32,000 bases of DNA, taken from assembly GCA_024275415.1 (NCBI GenBank), contig JAJRZD010000112.1:1-32000 (forward strand), written 5' to 3'. Positions 3,806 through 12,986 of the stretch are shown here, piece by piece (within the stretch, counting starts at the first letter, position 1; every line of letters starts with the position of its first letter). A program made the position numbers and the translations under genes. This DNA comes from an archaeon. GTDB taxonomy: Archaea; Asgardarchaeota; Thorarchaeia; Thorarchaeales; Thorarchaeaceae. The notes under the pieces are model-generated. The model ran no database searches. It was not told the origin of the DNA and saw only the letters and a program-made list of their open reading frames with translations.

Positions 3806-3842
3806 GGATTGAAGGAAAGTGCGGGGCGACCCTTGCGAGGTC

Positions 3843-3877
3843 GTCCAGCTCAACCCGAGTTTCAGTTGAGCCTTCAT
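3843..3877 (-). promoter_or_regulatory. Eukaryote/Asgard-type SECIS element (3' cis-acting RNA)
   Basis: Minus-strand RNA AUGAA-GGCUCAACU-GAAACUCG-GGUUGAGCU-GGAC: UGAN/NGAN tandem G.A core, about 9-bp upper stem, AAA in the apical region; about 93 nt 3' of an in-frame TGA at a conserved Cys/Sec position. Confidence 0.75.
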
Positions 3878-4038
3878 CCACCGCCCAGCACTAGATCCTT
3901 CCGGGCTATCTCGTGCAGCTCTCCGTCGTCGTCTTCACGAACGATGACCATGTGGGCCGCACATGATAGTCAGCAGTCATAGCAGCGCACGACCATCTCA
4001 AGGAGATTCAGCACGCCTTCAGGTATCTCTTCTGTCAT
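3874..4038 (-). CDS. vhuU: Selenocysteine-containing small subunit of the F420-non-reducing [NiFe(Se)] hydrogenase (VhuU/MvhU)
   Basis: Hand translation: MTEEIPEGVLNLLEMVVRCYDC-U-LSCAAHMVIVREDDDGELHEIARKDLVLGGG*. TGA codon 23 (3972..3970) occupies the first Cys position of the L2 motif (normally RAYDPCxxCxxH). GGAG RBS upstream; the adjacent MvhA lacks this motif. Confidence 0.9.
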
Positions 4039-4049
4039 CTTGATTTCTC

Positions 4050-5366
4050 CTATGTTTTTACAAGCGGATCCGGCAGCTTCAAACTGTCCAGAGCCTTATC
4101 CTCAAAGATCTGCTTTGCAGCAGTCATAAGGGATTTTTCGATTCCTGCGATATTATTGTTGGTTGCCACAATCAGGTTGGCATGTACCAGCATCCCTTCC
4201 TCATCGCTCGTGTAATTATGCAGAAGGGTTCCTCGTGGAGCTTCAACGATTCCAACTCCATCGCCAGCCTTTGGCTCGACATCGGTGAGCTTGATATCAT
4301 CACTGACAATCAGTGGGTCCTCTAAGAGAATCTTGATCCATTCGGCAGCCTGCACAAGTTCGACAATTCTGGCATAGTGGTAGACGAAGGTGTGGTGTGA
4401 TGGTCTACCTACGAGGTCTCTCATCTCCTTGAGAGCTTCCTGTGCAAGAGGAGTTGCCATCTTCTCTGCGACATTGCACCTTGCCAATGTGTTGGCTCGC
4501 CATATGCCATCCGGATAGCCTGCTGGCTTGTAGTAGATGTGTGTTGCATACGAGTGGTCAGGGATGTGCTCACCATAGTACTTGGTATAATCCTTTGGCT
4601 CGAAGTCTGCAACAACCTTGCCATCAGGACCCATAACCCGGACATTGCCCTCGTAGATGTCCAAAACACCATTGTTTGTCAGTCCGATATAGTATGTGGG
4701 AGTGACTGCAAGCTTTGTGATGACATCGATGTAGGCATTCACAACTGTCTTTGCCAGCTCGACGGTCTTATTCACATTCTCAAACAGCTCGGGGATTTGC
4801 TTTAGCCATTTGTCACGGTCTTCCTCTGTCAGTGCATTTAGCATCCCTCCGGGTATCGCGGTAACTGGATGTATTGCCTTTGCACCGACATCTCGGATAA
4901 GCTCCTGTCCGAATTGCATGATCTTGATTGCCTGTACTGTGACATCAGGAAGGTGCTTTAGCACGGCAGCGACGTTTCTCACAGCTGGATCCGCAAAGGG
5001 ACCGAACACGAAGTCGGGTGCAGCAAGTGCGTAGAAGTGGATTGCATGCGACGAGAGCTGCTTCGCCTCTATCATCAACCTGCGAAGCTTTACCGCGGCA
5101 GGTGGTGGTGTTACATCCCATGCAGCCTCTACTGCCTTGACCGACGCAAGGTGGTGAGGTATCGGACAAATCCCACAGATACGAGGCGCAATCCGTGGAG
5201 CCTCTTCCATTGGTCGTCCTGTAAGGAACTTCTCAAAGAACCTTGTGGAACCAACATTGTATTGGATGTCTTTGACCTTGTTGTCCTTCCCGAGCTTGAT
5301 TGTCAGAGCACCGTGCCCTTCAAGTCGTGTGACTGGGTCTATCCTAATTGTCTTTTCTTCGCCCAT
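4050..5366 (-). CDS. mvhA: F420-non-reducing [NiFe] hydrogenase large subunit (group 3c, VhuA-type, C-terminally split)
   Basis: N-terminal IDPVTRLEGH, L1 motif RICGICP, EAPRGTLLH; ends LVKT* with no C-terminal DPCxxC. Confidence 0.95.
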   Translation of the reverse strand: MGEEKTIRIDPVTRLEGHGALTIKLGKDNKVKDIQYNVGSTRFFEKFLTGRPMEEAPRIAPRICGICPIPHHLASVKAVEAAWDVTPPPAAVKLRRLMIEAKQLSSHAIHFYALAAPDFVFGPFADPAVRNVAAVLKHLPDVTVQAIKIMQFGQELIRDVGAKAIHPVTAIPGGMLNALTEEDRDKWLKQIPELFENVNKTVELAKTVVNAYIDVITKLAVTPTYYIGLTNNGVLDIYEGNVRVMGPDGKVVADFEPKDYTKYYGEHIPDHSYATHIYYKPAGYPDGIWRANTLARCNVAEKMATPLAQEALKEMRDLVGRPSHHTFVYHYARIVELVQAAEWIKILLEDPLIVSDDIKLTDVEPKAGDGVGIVEAPRGTLLHNYTSDEEGMLVHANLIVATNNNIAGIEKSLMTAAKQIFEDKALDSLKLPDPLVKT

Positions 5367-6302
5367 TTAGGCTTCCTCCTGTGCTTGCTTCATATCCTCG
5401 CGTCGAACCCGCATCCTATTGAGATGGCTTGTACCATACGTAAACCTATAGAATGTCCCAAGAGGGTCTTTGACCTGCTCAACAAGCTTGTCTGGTTCTA
5501 TGGGTGCATATGTGCCTAACATCGACATGGCAGCAGCACCATAGTCTGACATGATTGGTGGAGGTGGTCCAAAACATCCACGGCAAGTCACACCCTTGTT
5601 GACACACTGACCTTCGCAGAGACCCCATGTACTAGATCCTAGGCATATGTATCCTTGCTCAAGTAAACATCTCTCAGGGTCAGCCTTTCCTGTGAACGGC
5701 CTAAGAATCTCCGTGATTGGAGTTTCCTTTTTCTCTCTCGAGCAATAATGACAGACCGTGTGAGGCGGGAGGTCAAGAGTTTCGCCTGCAAGGAGCGCGT
5801 TGATGGCTGTTGCGATTAACTTGGAAGTCGGAGGGCAACCTGGAAGATAGATGTCAAAGTCCACGTATTCTGAATTTGGCCTGACAACAGGCTCAATCCG
5901 TGGCAAGTTCTCTGAGGGAACCTTTCCATCTTTGAATGTCTTGTTCTCCCTGAATTTCACATCATAGCACTCTTCAATGTCGGACTGGTTTGCCAATGTT
6001 GGGATGCCCCCAAAACACGAACAAGAACCAAATGCTATCAGGATCTGGCATTTCTCACGCATGACTTTCAGGAGATGGATGTCCTCCTCTGTTCGGGCCA
6101 TGCCTTCATAGAACCCGACGACTATTGATTTGTCTTCGTAGTTCTCAAGATGGTGGAGCTTGAAATCAGCCACCGCCTGCCAGTATTTGATTTCCAGTTT
6201 CGGTAAGATATCTGCTAGTCCAAGATGAATATCGATCAGGCTCTGAAAGCATCCCCAACAAGAGGAGCCTTGCCCCATCGCTACAGGTACCGGGTCACTC
6301 AT
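5367..6302 (-). CDS. mvhG: F420-non-reducing hydrogenase small subunit
   Basis: SCWGC, FYEG, FGSCSCFGG, LPGCPP, TVCHYC, CLLEQGYICLG, CRGCFGP Fe-S motifs. Confidence 0.93.
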   Translation of the reverse strand: MSDPVPVAMGQGSSCWGCFQSLIDIHLGLADILPKLEIKYWQAVADFKLHHLENYEDKSIVVGFYEGMARTEEDIHLLKVMREKCQILIAFGSCSCFGGIPTLANQSDIEECYDVKFRENKTFKDGKVPSENLPRIEPVVRPNSEYVDFDIYLPGCPPTSKLIATAINALLAGETLDLPPHTVCHYCSREKKETPITEILRPFTGKADPERCLLEQGYICLGSSTWGLCEGQCVNKGVTCRGCFGPPPPIMSDYGAAAMSMLGTYAPIEPDKLVEQVKDPLGTFYRFTYGTSHLNRMRVRREDMKQAQEEA

Positions 6303-6304
6303 TC

Positions 6305-6538
6305 TTAGGCCTCCTTCATGGAATAGACAAGTTCATGGTTCTCTTCACCAGCAACCTCGATATCGCCCCACTTGAGCATCCCCAGCAGATTCCAGACTAC
6401 CAATTCGGTTGCCAGTCCAGTCTTCTGAGATATCACGGTCACGGTGTTTGCGCCGCCACTCAACGCCTCTTTTATCATTTTGCGTTGCTGACGTACATTG
6501 CTATGCTTTTGCTTGAAGTACAACGAGAATTGTTTCAT
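6305..6538 (-). CDS. Small (77 aa) winged helix-turn-helix-like protein inside the hdr-mvh operon
   Basis: Start moved to ATG 6538 (MKQFSL), overlapping the mvhD stop (ATGA). IKEALSGGANTVTVISQKTGLATELVVWNLLGMLKWGDIE has a wHTH pattern; stop is 2 nt from the mvhG start. Confidence 0.7.
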   Translation of the reverse strand: MKQFSLYFKQKHSNVRQQRKMIKEALSGGANTVTVISQKTGLATELVVWNLLGMLKWGDIEVAGEENHELVYSMKEA

Positions 6539-6978
6539 CGCCACTCCCTCTTGATTGGTCCAAGTTCCTTCACTTGGTCGATAAGTGTCCTCACTCCATC
6601 GGCAAATATCTGGGCTTCTGAAGCACTGGCCCACTGTAAGCGGACTCTCTTTGGGTTCACACCTGACTGCTCGATGACTTTCTCCATCAGTGCCCATCGT
6701 GCACGAGCCTTCAAGTTTCCACTCGTATAATGGCAGTCGCCAGGATGGCATCCGCTTACCAACACTCCGTCAGCTCCCATGTCAAGTGCTGCAAGGATGA
6801 ACTCCACATCGATTCGCCCTGTGCAGTTCACGCGCAAGATACGAGCGTTCGGAGGATATTGTATCCTCGAAGTGCCAGCAAGGTCTGCACCTGCGTAAGA
6901 GCACCAGTTGCAACAATATGCGATGATTCGTGGTTCCCAGTCAGGGTCCATCTTGCTTGTTGTGGCGATTGCTACCAT
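6535..6978 (-). CDS. mvhD: Hydrogenase delta subunit ([2Fe-2S]), all-Cys form
   Basis: YCCNWCSYAGADLAG, RVNCTGR, GCHPGDCHY, WASASE. Start moved to ATG 6978, which overlaps the hdrA' stop (TGATG). Confidence 0.93.
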   Translation of the reverse strand: MVAIATTSKMDPDWEPRIIAYCCNWCSYAGADLAGTSRIQYPPNARILRVNCTGRIDVEFILAALDMGADGVLVSGCHPGDCHYTSGNLKARARWALMEKVIEQSGVNPKRVRLQWASASEAQIFADGVRTLIDQVKELGPIKREWR

Positions 6979-8756
6979 CACGCACCACCCCCTGGAGTTG
7001 CGACTGGGACACACAGATATGCTTCTACCATTGCCATGATCTGCTCATTCGTTGAATGCAACATGATTATCGCGTTGCTTGGGCATGCCGCTGCACAGGT
7101 ACCGCATCCATGGCATTTGGCCTCGGTCACGTACGCAATATGGGGGTCTCGTGACATGTCCCAGCTTATCGCTCCGTAAGGACATGCTGTGATACAGGTG
7201 GCACAGGATGAGCACAGGTCTGGGATGACACGCGACACTGTTGATTCAATCTCGACTGCACCTTTTGCCATCAGTCCCACTGCTTTGGCTGCAGCCCCGC
7301 TCGCATCGATAACTGATTCCGAAGCGTTCTTGGCAGCCTGTGCAGCACCCGCAATCATGATTCCCGCGGTGTGCGTTGTGACAGGGTTCAGCTTCACATG
7401 TTCGGGATTGAAGAAGCCATCCGAGCTTCTCGTGAGGCTAAAGGTATGGCTCACTTCCTCTATCCCTTCTGGAGGCACCATTGCCGTGGCAAGAACGATG
7501 ATGTCTGGGTTGAATTCCATATCTGTGTCTGCGAGGACATCTTTCCAACGCATGGTGATCTTACCATCATTCACCTCTACTTCAGGTTTGGCGTCCGGAG
7601 GATACTTTGTGTAGATGACATGCTTCTGCCGAGCAACTCTCTGAAAGTCCTCGTGCTCCTTGCCGTAGGTCCGGATGTCCTGATAGAGAATGACTACCTC
7701 ATCAAGTCGATCCGCCATGATGCCCGCTGTCTTTGCCAGTGCTGAACAGCAATACCGCGAGCAATGCTCGTGTCCTTTCCAGCCCGGCTCGCGAGAGCCG
7801 ACGCATCCGATAAAGGCGACCTTCCTGACTGGCTTCCCGTCACTCGGTCTGATGAACTGCTGCTCATCAGGTCTTCCTTGCAGGTCTCCCAGAGTCATGA
7901 TATCTAATGATTTGTCATAATTATAGAGACCCACTGGGACGTATGGTTGGAATCCTGTAGCCACTATCACGGCTCCGACCTCATACTTCTTGTGTTTCTT
8001 CAAGCCTTCTACTGAAACCTCCACCTCGAAATTGCCTATGTACCCTTCGAAGTTCACAATGACTGCGCCGGTTCGAATCTCTATGTTCTTGTGCTTTCGA
8101 ACACGATGAATCATGGGTTCCAATACCTCATGACCTGGCTTGTCACCAGGAAACATATGGGCCCACTTCCGGACATTGCCGCCAAGCTCCCTTTCTCGCT
8201 CGATGAGCACTACCTCAAACCCTCTGTCTGCGATATCAAGGGCCGCCCTGAGCCCTGCAATCCCTCCACCCACGACAAGTGTGCGAGGAGTGATCTCAAC
8301 CTTTTTGATTGGCAATGGCTCAAGATTTGCAGCCCGTGCCACCGCCATCCGAACTAGGTCATTGGCTTTGGCTGTAGCAGCTTCAGGTTCTCTCATATGA
8401 CACCAAGAAACGTGCTCGCGTAGATTCACCTGCTCGAATAGATAACGGTTTAATCCGGCTTCTTCAACCACTCTCCGGAATGTAGGTTCGTGCATCCGCG
8501 GTGAGCAGCTGGCTACGATAACTCTGTTGAGGTTATGTTCATGTATCATGGTTCTGATGGTTTCCTGACCTGCATCACTACAGGTGAACATCTCATGAGT
8601 TGTAAATACAACATTTGGTAGAGTGGCTGCTGTTTTTGCCACATCCTCGACATCCACAACTCCTGCAATGTTATGGCCACAATGGCACACGAACACACCA
8701 ATCCGTAGCTCTTCCTTTGATTCCATGGCGTTCATTCCTACACTGTCTTCTGTCAT
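6978..8756 (-). CDS. hdrA: Heterodisulfide reductase subunit A paralog (HdrA'): has N-terminal and C-terminal ferredoxin domains, lacks the central ferredoxin insert
   Basis: IGVFVCHCG, SCSPRMHEPTF, NLREHVSW, VVGGGIAG FAD motif, GCVGSR...CSRYCC, C-terminal CSSCATCITACP/CHGCGTCAAACP. Start ATG 8756 overlaps the hdrB stop. Confidence 0.92.
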   Translation of the reverse strand: MTEDSVGMNAMESKEELRIGVFVCHCGHNIAGVVDVEDVAKTAATLPNVVFTTHEMFTCSDAGQETIRTMIHEHNLNRVIVASCSPRMHEPTFRRVVEEAGLNRYLFEQVNLREHVSWCHMREPEAATAKANDLVRMAVARAANLEPLPIKKVEITPRTLVVGGGIAGLRAALDIADRGFEVVLIERERELGGNVRKWAHMFPGDKPGHEVLEPMIHRVRKHKNIEIRTGAVIVNFEGYIGNFEVEVSVEGLKKHKKYEVGAVIVATGFQPYVPVGLYNYDKSLDIMTLGDLQGRPDEQQFIRPSDGKPVRKVAFIGCVGSREPGWKGHEHCSRYCCSALAKTAGIMADRLDEVVILYQDIRTYGKEHEDFQRVARQKHVIYTKYPPDAKPEVEVNDGKITMRWKDVLADTDMEFNPDIIVLATAMVPPEGIEEVSHTFSLTRSSDGFFNPEHVKLNPVTTHTAGIMIAGAAQAAKNASESVIDASGAAAKAVGLMAKGAVEIESTVSRVIPDLCSSCATCITACPYGAISWDMSRDPHIAYVTEAKCHGCGTCAAACPSNAIIMLHSTNEQIMAMVEAYLCVPVATPGGGA

Positions 8757-9628
8757 TGGCTCACCCCACAACAGTCAATTACCGAATGAGGGTCAATCTT
8801 GTTCAGCTCGACACCCAACATGTCCTCGTCCAAGCCCAATGCTGGCCCTAGAAACTGGGTGATGGGTAGCACTGGTATCTTCTGTCGATCACTGGTTCCC
8901 CCTCCGAACTGTACCTGGGTCAGCTGGATATCACAGAACACACAAGCTGTCACAATCCCGTCTGCTCCAGCTTTGGTAACGTTATCGATCTTGTCCAGTC
9001 CAATGGTCGTAGCGACATCCTCATCCATTGCGAGCATCGGACCCCCACAGCAACGTGTCTTTCCAGGATAGTCCACTGCTTGTCCGCCCACAGCTTCAAC
9101 CAGTCTATCCAGGATAGTGGGGTTCTCGGGGTCGTCAACATGGACTATCTCGTAGGGACGTGTCACATGGCATCCATAGTGCGCCGCCATTTTGATGCCA
9201 TTATAGGGCTTGACAACAGCCCGTTCTATCTTGTCGAATCCAATATCCTCTGCCAAGACCTGTAAGAGGTGACGCACACGGACTTTACCACTGTACTTCA
9301 AACCCTCTTCTGCAAGTAAGGAATTCACCTCATCTCTAGCACGGATATCATGGTCAAGAAAGTGCTTGTTCGTCTTGAGAGACCCTGAACATGCACCACA
9401 AATTGCAAGGATGTCCTTTTCCTCGCGCTCAGCCAGTGCCAGTATTCTTCCACTCATAGACGCAAAAGCCATCCTGTCCATGGATTCGACGTATTGAGCG
9501 CCACAACAATTTGTATCTTTCAGCTCGATGACATTTACTCCGAGCTTCTCAAGGACCGCGATAGTGGCAGCCTCGTATGCTGGAAGTCTGACTGGGGTGG
9601 TACAGCCTCTATAGAGCAGCATATCCAT
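8753..9628 (-). CDS. hdrB: Heterodisulfide reductase subunit B
   Basis: Two CCG domains (YRGC...CCG...CGAC; HYGCH...CCGG...CVFC). Confidence 0.93.
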   Translation of the reverse strand: MDMLLYRGCTTPVRLPAYEAATIAVLEKLGVNVIELKDTNCCGAQYVESMDRMAFASMSGRILALAEREEKDILAICGACSGSLKTNKHFLDHDIRARDEVNSLLAEEGLKYSGKVRVRHLLQVLAEDIGFDKIERAVVKPYNGIKMAAHYGCHVTRPYEIVHVDDPENPTILDRLVEAVGGQAVDYPGKTRCCGGPMLAMDEDVATTIGLDKIDNVTKAGADGIVTACVFCDIQLTQVQFGGGTSDRQKIPVLPITQFLGPALGLDEDMLGVELNKIDPHSVIDCCGVSQ

Positions 9629-10179
9629 TAGCTCCCACTCTCCTCAGCAGCTTTCTTTCGTTCGAAATACCTTTTTCTCAACTTTCCAACGAACTCGTTG
9701 TTCATGTGTAGCTCAGGGTTCAGTCCAAGGTCCTCGCGTTCGTCCTCTTGAAAATCAGTGTATGCATCTTTCAGCATCCAACCATCCTCCAACACAGTCT
9801 TCACAGCCTCTTTGAAGACCCGCGGGACATGTCCTTCTCGTGCTGCAATCGTTCGAACAGCAAGGAATATCTCGGCAGGCGACACTCCCTCTTGGCAGCG
9901 TTCCTCACACATCCTGCAATTAAGACAGAGCCACGATTGGTCGCTCGAAAGAACTTCCTCTCGAAGTCCAAGGATGATTTTTTGGATCATTCGTCTTGGC
10001 CTGTATAGATCGGTCGCATTGGCCACAACACAGCTAGCAGTACATATGCCACATTGGATACACTTGTTGATGGCTTCACCGCCTTCTACCTTCTCAACCT
10101 CTTTGGCAAAAGCTGAGGTTGGAACATGAATAGATTTCTCTTGACCTTTTGTTGTACAAGTATGCATTATATTCGTCAC
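9628..10179 (-). CDS. hdrC: Heterodisulfide reductase subunit C
   Basis: CIQCGICTASC and WLCLNCRMCEERC 2x[4Fe-4S] motifs; GTG start overlaps the upstream stop. Confidence 0.92.
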   Translation of the reverse strand: MTNIMHTCTTKGQEKSIHVPTSAFAKEVEKVEGGEAINKCIQCGICTASCVVANATDLYRPRRMIQKIILGLREEVLSSDQSWLCLNCRMCEERCQEGVSPAEIFLAVRTIAAREGHVPRVFKEAVKTVLEDGWMLKDAYTDFQEDEREDLGLNPELHMNNEFVGKLRKRYFERKKAAEESGS

Positions 10180-12986
10180 CTCGATTTGGTTGTTTCAAGC
10201 TCAGCCTCTGGAGCCAGACTTTCTATAGTATGTTCGGAATCCTGGCCTGCAATCATTCCCCCCAGTACAATTGATGCTCTCATGGCGGCCGCACTTCCCG
10301 CAGTCACTGAATCGGGTATGTCCTTCGGCCCATCAGCACAACCACAGACGAAGATACCCATCTTGCTGGTATCGACAGGAGAAGTGAGCTCGTTCCGTAC
10401 ATCGATGTAGCCTTCATCTGAGAGGGCGATTCCAAGCTCCTCTGCTAGTATATTGACATCATCTGCAGGAAGCAGACCTGGGCTTATCACCAAAAGGTCA
10501 TGCTCAACCTTCTCAACGGAGCCAGTTTCTGTGTTCTCTACTTGGATCATGAGGTTGTCATTCTCAGGGTTCTCGTCTACTTCACCAACACGCCCTCGGA
10601 CAAAGTTGACGCCAAATCGGGTCTTTGACATCTCGAAGAACTCCTCGAACCCTTTGCCAAACGCTCGAATATCCGCATAGTATATAGAAACCTTCGCCTC
10701 TGGGTCATGTTCTCTAGCCATCACAGCATTCTTGATGCCATACATACAACAGACCCTGCTACAATGGGGAACATTCTTCTGAGTATCTCGCGCTCCGACG
10801 CATTGCACGAACCCGATGTTCTTCGGCATTTTTCCGTCGCTCAGGCGTATCAGATGACCTTGAGTAGGACCCGCTGCATTGATGAGTCGCTCGAATTCCA
10901 TGGCTGTTATGACATTCTTGAACTTACCATATCCAAGCCGTTTGTATTTGCTGACCTCAAAGAGCTTGTATCCAGTGGCAACTACAATGGCTCCCACGTT
11001 CAGGCTCAACCGTTCCTCCTTCATCGAGTGATCGATGGCATCTCTATCACATGCTTCCACACAGTTCATGCACTCACAACATATCGTGCAGTTCAGACAG
11101 CGCCCTGATTCATCGAGGGCAGTATCTTCATCAAATCCAAGCTCGACCTCTGAGAAATCGCCTTTACGACTTGCGATGCTCTGATGGGGCATCTCAGCTC
11201 TGGCTTGTGGTATGAATGTCGATTGGTCTATCTTTGGTCTTGCAATCCTGTAGACCTCAGGGTCTCGCCCTGCTCGAATATCCAGTCCGTTAAGGTATCT
11301 ATCGATAGATATTGCAGCCTCCTCACCCTGCCCAACAGCCTGCACTACTGTGGCTGGGCCAAGAACACAGTCACCACCAGCGAAGACTCCCTCATTACTC
11401 GTTTGCAATGTGACTTGATCTGTGATAATGGTACCCCACTCGGTAGTATCCAAATCGTTGTGGAGTGGAATTGGTTCTACAGACTGACCAACTGCGATAA
11501 TCATAGTGTCTGCAACGACAGTGAACTCCGAATCAGGTATTGGGATAGGTCTCCTTCGCCCTGAGTGGTCAGGTTCACCCAGACGCATTCGGATGCACTT
11601 GACACCTTGCACAGTACCTTTCTGGGTCAGAACCTCTACTGGATTCGTGAGGAACATGAAGCGGATCCCCTCCTGACGGGCCATCTCTACCTCTGATGGG
11701 ATGGCTGGGAGTTCGACCTGTGAGCGCCGGTATATCATTGTGACTTCGGACGCACCCAGACGAAGAGCTGTCCTACACGAATCCACGGCTGCATCGCCAC
11801 CCCCGATGACCACTACGCGTTCACCTAATTCTACAGGCTTGTGAGACGCGACTCTATCGAGAAAATCAATTGCATGGTATACACCTTTCGAGTCTTCACC
11901 TGCAATCATCAGTTTGTTACTGTGACTGGCGCCTGTAGCTATGAAGACTGCCTTGAATCCTTCATCTTTGAGCTCATCGATTGATTGTATCTCTCTGTCA
12001 CAGACGAACTCGACGCCGTGCTTTGCGACCCATTGGATCTCTTCCTGAAGGATGTCCCTTGGCAGTCGGTATTCAGGTATCGCATATTTCAGCAGTCCTC
12101 CCTCTTCTGATCTCTTCTCAAAAACAGTCACAGGATACCCTTTACGGGCAAGATGATATGCACATGAGATTCCTGCTGGTCCGGCACCCACAACGGCAAC
12201 CCGTTCACTCCTCTTGATTTGAGGTTCCACCGTGACCTGTGTGTTGTGTTCTCTCTCGTAGTCTGAGAGGAAACGGTGGAGATTCCTGATGCTAACGCTC
12301 TCGTCATACTCTCCTCGTTGACACTGCCCTTCACACCAGCTTACACAGACCCTTCCGAGAGTGCCCGGGAATGGTATTGCATCCCGCACAATTCTGATGG
12401 CTTCTGCATATTTCTTTTGATTCATCAAAGTGACGAATGCCTGAGCATTCACGCCTGCTGGACAATTAATCCTGCAGGCTGGGTGGTCTCGTTTATCAAT
12501 CGTGTACACATTAGGTGTAGCCTGTGGGAACGGTAAATAGGTCGCTTTCCTGAAGCCCAATCCCTCATCAAATTCATTTGCAACCTCGATAGGGCAGACC
12601 TCAGAGCAGTCGCCACATCCCGAGCATTTGTCTTCCAGAATGTATCGAGGTTTCCTGATGACTTCCACATGAAAATTGCCAGCTTTGCCAGTCACTCGCT
12701 TGACTTCAGAATACGTCAGAAGCTCGATATTTGGATGTCGTGCAACCTCACTCAATCGTGGCGTCAGTATGCATGCTGAACAATCAAGGGTAGGGAAGGT
12801 CTTGTCTATTGCTGCCATATGTCCGCCAATGCTAGGCGTCTTCTCGACAAGATGGACTTTGAAACCTTGGTTTGCGATGTCCAATGCGGCTTGCATTCCA
12901 GCAACACCACCACCTATCACGAGTGCACTGGGTTCCTGGGTGTCCTTATTTGCAGGATTTGTTTGCGTAGGATGATCAACAGTCAT
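10176..12986 (-). CDS. hdrA: Large HdrA-like protein (HdrL type): HdrA FAD core with an inserted GltD/NfnB-like NAD(P)H:flavin oxidoreductase
   Basis: VIGGGVAG, DKTFPTLDCSACIL, CSGCGDCSEVCP; then PACRINCP...GRVC (GltD Fe-S), VGAGPAG, IGGGDAAVD, IYRRS; returns to HdrA at CCECMNCVEAC, TAMEFER, QCVGAR...CSRVCCMYGIK. AAGGAG RBS. Confidence 0.93.
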   Translation of the reverse strand: MTVDHPTQTNPANKDTQEPSALVIGGGVAGMQAALDIANQGFKVHLVEKTPSIGGHMAAIDKTFPTLDCSACILTPRLSEVARHPNIELLTYSEVKRVTGKAGNFHVEVIRKPRYILEDKCSGCGDCSEVCPIEVANEFDEGLGFRKATYLPFPQATPNVYTIDKRDHPACRINCPAGVNAQAFVTLMNQKKYAEAIRIVRDAIPFPGTLGRVCVSWCEGQCQRGEYDESVSIRNLHRFLSDYEREHNTQVTVEPQIKRSERVAVVGAGPAGISCAYHLARKGYPVTVFEKRSEEGGLLKYAIPEYRLPRDILQEEIQWVAKHGVEFVCDREIQSIDELKDEGFKAVFIATGASHSNKLMIAGEDSKGVYHAIDFLDRVASHKPVELGERVVVIGGGDAAVDSCRTALRLGASEVTMIYRRSQVELPAIPSEVEMARQEGIRFMFLTNPVEVLTQKGTVQGVKCIRMRLGEPDHSGRRRPIPIPDSEFTVVADTMIIAVGQSVEPIPLHNDLDTTEWGTIITDQVTLQTSNEGVFAGGDCVLGPATVVQAVGQGEEAAISIDRYLNGLDIRAGRDPEVYRIARPKIDQSTFIPQARAEMPHQSIASRKGDFSEVELGFDEDTALDESGRCLNCTICCECMNCVEACDRDAIDHSMKEERLSLNVGAIVVATGYKLFEVSKYKRLGYGKFKNVITAMEFERLINAAGPTQGHLIRLSDGKMPKNIGFVQCVGARDTQKNVPHCSRVCCMYGIKNAVMAREHDPEAKVSIYYADIRAFGKGFEEFFEMSKTRFGVNFVRGRVGEVDENPENDNLMIQVENTETGSVEKVEHDLLVISPGLLPADDVNILAEELGIALSDEGYIDVRNELTSPVDTSKMGIFVCGCADGPKDIPDSVTAGSAAAMRASIVLGGMIAGQDSEHTIESLAPEAELETTKSR

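Follow-up and report, generated by a model that had tools for sequence, protein, structure and literature searches.

Introduction

A hydrogenase whose large subunit is divided into two polypeptides is known in structural detail from Methanococcus maripaludis, where the split VhuADGU has been resolved by cryo-EM as part of the Hdr-Vhu-Fwd complex (PDB 9sfi and 9t1s; PMC13518236). The small partner of the divided subunit, VhuU, has also been described in Asgard archaea. The main text of one study lists VhuU among five selenoprotein families of Lokiarchaeota and presents VhuU.1 with a eukaryote-like SECIS (Mariotti 2016, PMC4989117). The main text of a later survey catalogues FrhA/MvhA/VhuU in 68% of the selenocysteine (Sec)-using Asgard archaea, places VhuU in Loki-, Thor- and Sifarchaeia, and describes features of the SECIS loop that are specific to Thorarchaeia (Huang 2024, PMC11227280).

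Here we describe a vhuA-vhuU locus in a 32,000-nucleotide stretch of a Thorarchaeota genome, called the window below. An earlier note on this DNA had proposed that a hidden selenoprotein gene completes the active site of a hydrogenase, and protein alignment, conservation of the TGA, the SECIS and the Sec machinery of the genome all support that reading. The open reading frame (ORF) in question is almost certainly vhuU, in which a cytoplasmic, Hdr-linked [NiFeSe] hydrogenase of group 3c has the C-terminal end of its large subunit encoded separately. Because VhuU selenoproteins have been published from Lokiarchaeota in 2016 (PMC4989117) and from Asgard archaea, including Thorarchaeia, in 2024 (PMC11227280), the vhuU gene, the split architecture and the eukaryote-like SECIS of this lineage are a re-discovery. 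Two details may be previously undescribed: a Cys-Sec dyad at the Ni site, and a second hairpin beside the SECIS core that is common to vhuU and selD.

Results

Every feature of vhuA and vhuU is on the minus strand, a point left unstated in the earlier note. The vhuA gene (4050-5366) encodes a C-terminally truncated large subunit of a group 3c [NiFe(Se)] hydrogenase, 438 residues long (Pfam NiFeSe_Hases, 93.5 bits), which carries the N-terminal Ni/Fe ligand motif RICGIC with Cys64 and Cys67. As the earlier note had claimed, the translation stops short of the C-terminal Ni motif: the ORF, running from 5366 to 4050, terminates as ...LPDPLVKT-TAG, and D-P-C-x-x-C-x-x-H is absent from all 438 residues scanned. 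An 11-nt spacer (4049-4039) follows, and vhuU starts in a different frame with an ATG at 4038. A GGAG motif (4047-4050), which reads as Shine-Dalgarno-like and presumably functions as such, stands 8 nt before this ATG and has one base in common with the TAG stop of vhuA.

The vhuU gene (3874-4038) consists of 54 sense codons and a TGA stop (3876-3874), and its ligand residues, by translation and alignment, would be Sec23, Cys26 and His29. Codon 23 is an in-frame TGA (3970-3972), preceded by ...LNLLEMVVRCYDC and followed by LSCAAH; alignment and conservation predict that it is read as selenocysteine at the position of a terminal Ni ligand. With the TGA taken as Sec the product is MTEEIPEGVLNLLEMVVRCYDC-U-LSCAAH plus 25 residues. 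The Ni-binding motif R-C-Y-D-C-U-L-S-C-A-A-H, recognised from translation, alignment and homologues, takes up codons 18-29 (3952-3987), and the 25-residue C-terminal extension after His29 (3877-3951) is presumably cleaved by a maturation endopeptidase. Removal of such a tail by an endopeptidase is an established part of [NiFe] hydrogenase maturation, and at another place the genome encodes a HycI-family protease (C117:30144-30485, 59.8 bits). The translation thus agrees throughout with what the earlier note had read from the letters, namely an 11-nt gap, another frame with its own GGAG, a 54-codon ORF with TGA-LSCAAH, and a 25-residue tail.

The two products align with the two parts of known large subunits. 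Among solved structures, VhuA is most similar to its naturally split counterpart from M. maripaludis (9sfi_g, E 2e-131, 441.9 bits, residues 7-421 of 438), and both proteins end at homologous positions. The next match, the unsplit MvhA 5odc_F (1.5e-109), is covered only over its residues 4-412 of 473. VhuU aligns to the missing segment, residues ~424-453 of MvhA, which are the last ~30 before the cleavage site. In phmmer comparisons it matched MvhA C-termini (7t2r_D, 1.5e-5; 5odc_F, 3.1e-5) and the 27-residue VhuU chain 9sfi_M (...LRAYDPXYSCAAHM; 1.6e-4). In 7t2r_D, 5odc_F and 9sw2_F the TGA column holds the first Cys of D-P-C-x-x-C-x-x-H, and in 9sfi_M it holds X (Sec), so that the alignment with VhuU and MvhA C-termini, proposed as a check in the earlier note, puts the TGA on a Ni-ligand position.

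Upstream of vhuA, on the same strand, lie the remaining genes of an Hdr-linked hydrogenase. The small subunit gene mvhG/vhuG (5367-6302; Pfam Oxidored_q6, 73.8 bits) is preceded by an ORF of 77 residues (6305-6538), which has no Pfam family and overlaps the mvhD stop; we know of no canonical mvhDGA operon with a gene between mvhD and mvhG. The mvhD gene itself (6535-6978; Pfam FlpD, 168 bits) is of the Cys form, its start overlaps the hdrA stop, and its product matches Cys-type MvhD chains (4e-44) better than VhuD of M. maripaludis (2e-28). Then come hdrA, also of the Cys form (6978-8771), hdrB (8753-9628) and hdrC (9628-10167), all three identified with Pfam, and the hdr-vhu operon is headed by a gene for a 936-residue HdrA/GltD-like fusion (10176-12986). 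Since the VhuA and VhuU alignments are accompanied by mvhG, mvhD, hdrA, hdrB and hdrC upstream, with vhuA and these five genes on one strand between 3874 and 10167 as in a group 3c module, the predicted hydrogenase is assigned to group 3c, Hdr-linked and of the Vhu type. Two further features of the operon were observed. The 936-residue HdrA-like protein contains an inserted GltD/NfnB-like NAD(P)H module (Pyr_redox_2, 185.8 bits; Fer4_20). Neither hdrA nor mvhD (6535-8771) has an in-frame TGA, and vhuU is the sole Sec gene of the hdr-vhu operon.

Immediately at the end of vhuU we found a eukaryote-like SECIS of type I (3844-3877, minus strand), delineated by covariation and located ~93 nt downstream of Sec codon 23. 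Its AUGA core (3877-3874) includes the UGA stop codon of vhuU itself; the upper stem pairs 3872-3865 with 3854-3847 (8 bp), the 10-nt apical loop UGAAACUCGG (3864-3855) starts with UGAAAC, and the 3' side of the core is GA (3845-3844). Across 44 aligned homologous 3' regions, each of the eight stem pairs has compensatory changes on both sides, 93% of the cells are paired, compared with 21-53% when the partners are slid, and none of 500 shuffles reached the covariation score. A covariance model of the element (R1) scores 72.4 bits at vhuU, the next match in the window scoring 11.6 bits, and in the whole 3.5-Mb genome it matches only the two vhuU loci. According to the main text of the Asgard survey (PMC11227280), type I eSECIS-like elements (lokiSECIS) have AUGA, an upper stem of 7-15 bp, an A-rich apical loop of 8-20 nt and (G/A)A, and the element at 3877-3844 has every one of these features. 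No Rfam family was matched at gathering thresholds anywhere in the window.

Directly 3' of the SECIS core is a second hairpin (3826-3843, minus strand; stem CGACCU/GGGUCG, loop CGCAA). It is present in vhuU of all Asgard lineages sampled and is conserved mainly in sequence, one of its four scored pairs showing covariation. An analogous arrangement exists at selD: in 22 genomes of the family (loci L131-L155) the selD SECIS is followed by a tetraloop-capped hairpin, in which three of five pairs covary, and the UGA stop codon of selD likewise falls within the SECIS core, (A/G/C)UGA. The cap common to the vhuU and selD hairpins is a loop of the GCAA/GCGA type. When the whole genome was scanned with a strict regular expression for TGA, stem, GAC and YGCAA hairpin, only the two vhuU loci were returned; the selD element was missed because its spacing differs. 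A candidate lower stem of three bases, which would close a three-way junction around the second hairpin (columns 3-5/65-67), is 66% paired in a gappy region of the alignment. The main texts of PMC4989117 and PMC11227280 make no mention of the second hairpin that we could find. As a separate observation, most Thorarchaeota vhuU genes have in their 3' regions, ~10-20 nt past the second hairpin, a conserved pyrimidine-rich motif with the consensus CUCCUUC, which in the window lies at 3807-3822 (minus strand) and is followed by a run of seven U. The motif and the U7 run may be a transcription termination signal.

The earlier note had proposed a search of the genome for Sec machinery, and tRNA-Sec, a PSTK-like gene, SepSecS, SelB and SelD were all found in this assembly (3.5 Mb, 92.9% complete). 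Four of them are adjacent on one contig (C69): tRNA-Sec (57.9 bits, anticodon TCA), SepSecS (448.7 bits), SelB (269.7 bits) and the PSTK-like gene, which at 152.7 bits scores below the NCBIfam cut-off of 290.5 and adjoins the other three. SelD (211.7 bits), itself a Sec-containing protein, is encoded on another contig (C127).

The in-frame TGA is a shared property of the gene. In a search of 60 related genomes, the ORF with exactly one in-frame TGA recurred in 34 of the 36 other members of the family and, beyond it, in further families of the phylum, and loci fetched via VhuA added Jord-, Frey-, Atabey-, Hel- and Loki-like metagenome-assembled genomes (MAGs) with the TGA ORF. Codon 23 is TGA in 76 of 76 distinct homologous genes, and the six codons after it keep L-S-C-(A/G)-A-H, spelled with six different codons for Ser, four for Ala and two each for Cys and His. 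These genes were chosen by a pattern (a stop, then L-[SA]-C-x-x-H), so the invariance of the residues is partly by construction, but the pattern explains neither the synonymous variation nor the fact that the stop is always TGA. Because the residues after the TGA are kept while their codons vary synonymously, the frame beyond it is, as judged from these sequences, under purifying selection, though under translation table 11 it would be untranslated. Recurrence across the family and this protein-level conservation place the ORF and its TGA beyond chance. Two other explanations of the TGA were rejected: a general reassignment, since TGA, which ends 7 of the 15 long ORFs of the window, is used there as an ordinary stop more often than any other codon, and a sequencing error, such as the miscall of TGC or TGT that the earlier note had raised, since all 76 distinct homologues carry TGA.

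Three side observations concern vhuU and its relatives. First, CUA (Leu) comes directly after the Sec UGA in 64 of the 76 distinct vhuU genes (window 3967-3972, minus strand), although a Leu codon conserved 13 positions before Sec is mostly CUG or CUC; the UGA-CUA context may weaken termination at the Sec codon. Second, the genome has another vhuA-vhuU pair (G000:C46:3727-5270, locus L129), with a VhuA of 436 residues that is 69% identical to that of the window, a VhuU tail of 21 residues instead of 25, and a SECIS scoring 72.2 bits with R1. Third, one relative (G018) has a split but Cys-coded VhuU-like ORF (L130, G018:C63, 1504-1665, plus strand; ...RCYDCCLSCSAF..., ...DCCLSCSAF), in which the conserved His has become Phe. 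This may be a reversion from Sec to Cys with an altered cleavage site.

The last of these genes bears on how the UGA is decoded. Readthrough mostly as Cys or Trp, by a near-cognate tRNA or by Cys-tRNA(Sec), would yield an ordinary [NiFe] site, and the G018 gene indicates that a Cys version of the split peptide can be encoded. However, the dedicated SECIS is kept, as is a complete Sec pathway, and that none of the 76 SECIS-retaining genes has TGC or TGT at codon 23 speaks for selection of Sec itself; we therefore give decoding as Cys or Trp very little credence. Least credible of all is that the TGA is a true stop and the locus a decayed or truncated hydrogenase, a pseudogene remnant with its C-terminal motif untranslated: table 11 does cut the ORF short at 22 codons, and TGA often serves as an ordinary stop in the window, but against this stand the purifying selection on the post-TGA frame, where the L-S-C-x-A-H codons vary only synonymously, the retention of the arrangement in 76 distinct genes from several Asgard classes, the covarying SECIS with a full set of Sec machinery, and the two vhuA-vhuU loci, 69% identical in VhuA, that the genome keeps.

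The residue before Sec distinguishes Asgard VhuU from its known relatives. It is Cys22 (D-C-U; 3970-3975, minus strand) and is invariant in the 76 distinct Asgard vhuU genes (homologues L020-L126), in contrast to D-P-U in VhuU of M. maripaludis (9sfi_M) and D-P-C in unsplit Cys-type MvhA. VhuU of Thorarchaeota has a further Cys at -4 (R-C-Y-D-C-U). We found no mention of the invariant Cys in the main texts of PMC4989117 or PMC11227280.

Discussion

Taken as vhuU, the ORF turns an apparently broken Thorarchaeota hydrogenase into one predicted to be complete and selenium-dependent. This bears on metabolic reconstruction of Asgard archaea, that is, on H2 cycling and Hdr-linked electron bifurcation, and on the annotation of MAGs.

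For the insertion of Sec, the cleavage of the tail, the roles of the ligands and the assembly of the complex we infer the following. The operon, with the order hdrA-like, hdrC, hdrB, hdrA, mvhD, small ORF, mvhG, vhuA and vhuU, would be transcribed from the minus strand, and translation of vhuU would start at its own GGAG-ATG. The UGA of codon 23 would be decoded by Sec-tRNA(Sec) delivered by archaeal SelB, under the direction of the eukaryote-like kink-turn SECIS downstream. After insertion of NiFe(CN)2CO, an endopeptidase of the HycI type would cut off the 25-residue tail following His29, and the mature peptide of 29 residues would remain on VhuA. VhuU would then contribute Sec23 as a terminal Ni ligand and Cys26 as a bridging ligand, with Cys64 and Cys67 coming from VhuA. 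The steps of SelB/Sec-tRNA(Sec) decoding and tail cleavage are drawn from established knowledge of [NiFe(Se)] maturation and of Vhu. The stop codon of vhuU, which is also a UGA, would be too near the SECIS for recoding, as has been argued for VhuU of Lokiarchaeota (Mariotti 2016, PMC4989117).

A match to the coordination chemistry of Methanococcus Vhu is not guaranteed, because the near-invariant Pro that precedes Sec has given way to Cys. At the GCUG end of thioredoxin reductase a Cys-Sec selenenylsulfide forms, which offers an analogue for Cys22-Sec23. By that analogy, a speculative and rather unlikely possibility is that the Cys is functional, forming with Sec a vicinal pair at the Ni site whose reversible selenenylsulfide might gate or protect the site during maturation or oxidative stress. 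If this were true, the Cys-Sec bond would define a distinct, Asgard-type [NiFeSe] centre.

The locus can be set against three kinds of known systems. With unsplit MvhA (Methanothermococcus thermolithotrophicus, 5odc; Asgard and Bathyarchaeia loci L120-L122 and L126) it shares the hydrogenase group, the C-terminal helix, the Ni motif and a cleavable tail, but unsplit MvhA is one polypeptide of 470-481 residues with D-P-C and has neither TGA nor SECIS. VhuA and VhuU of Methanococcus are closer: they are split at the homologous place, have Sec-x-x-Cys-x-x-His, and are associated with VhuG, VhuD and HdrABC. They differ in the motif, which is D-P-U-Y-S-C in M. maripaludis and D-C-U-L-S-C in the VhuU of the window, and in the host, M. 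maripaludis being a methanogen and the host of the window a non-methanogen. The SECIS differs too, being of the kink-turn, eukaryote-like kind in the window and of the GAA_A type in methanogens, as the main text of PMC4989117 describes the latter.

Closest of all are the Asgard VhuU genes already described. In Lokiarchaeota HdrA and VhuD are selenoproteins, whereas hdrA and mvhD of the window operon are Cys forms. In the other respects compared they are alike: an ORF of ~50 codons after vhuA with a single Sec, and a SECIS of type I whose AUGA core holds the UGA stop, with a stem of 8-9 bp and an apical loop rich in A. On its 3' side the core has the GA that is reported for Thorarchaeia, and the lineage, Thorarchaeota, is the same.
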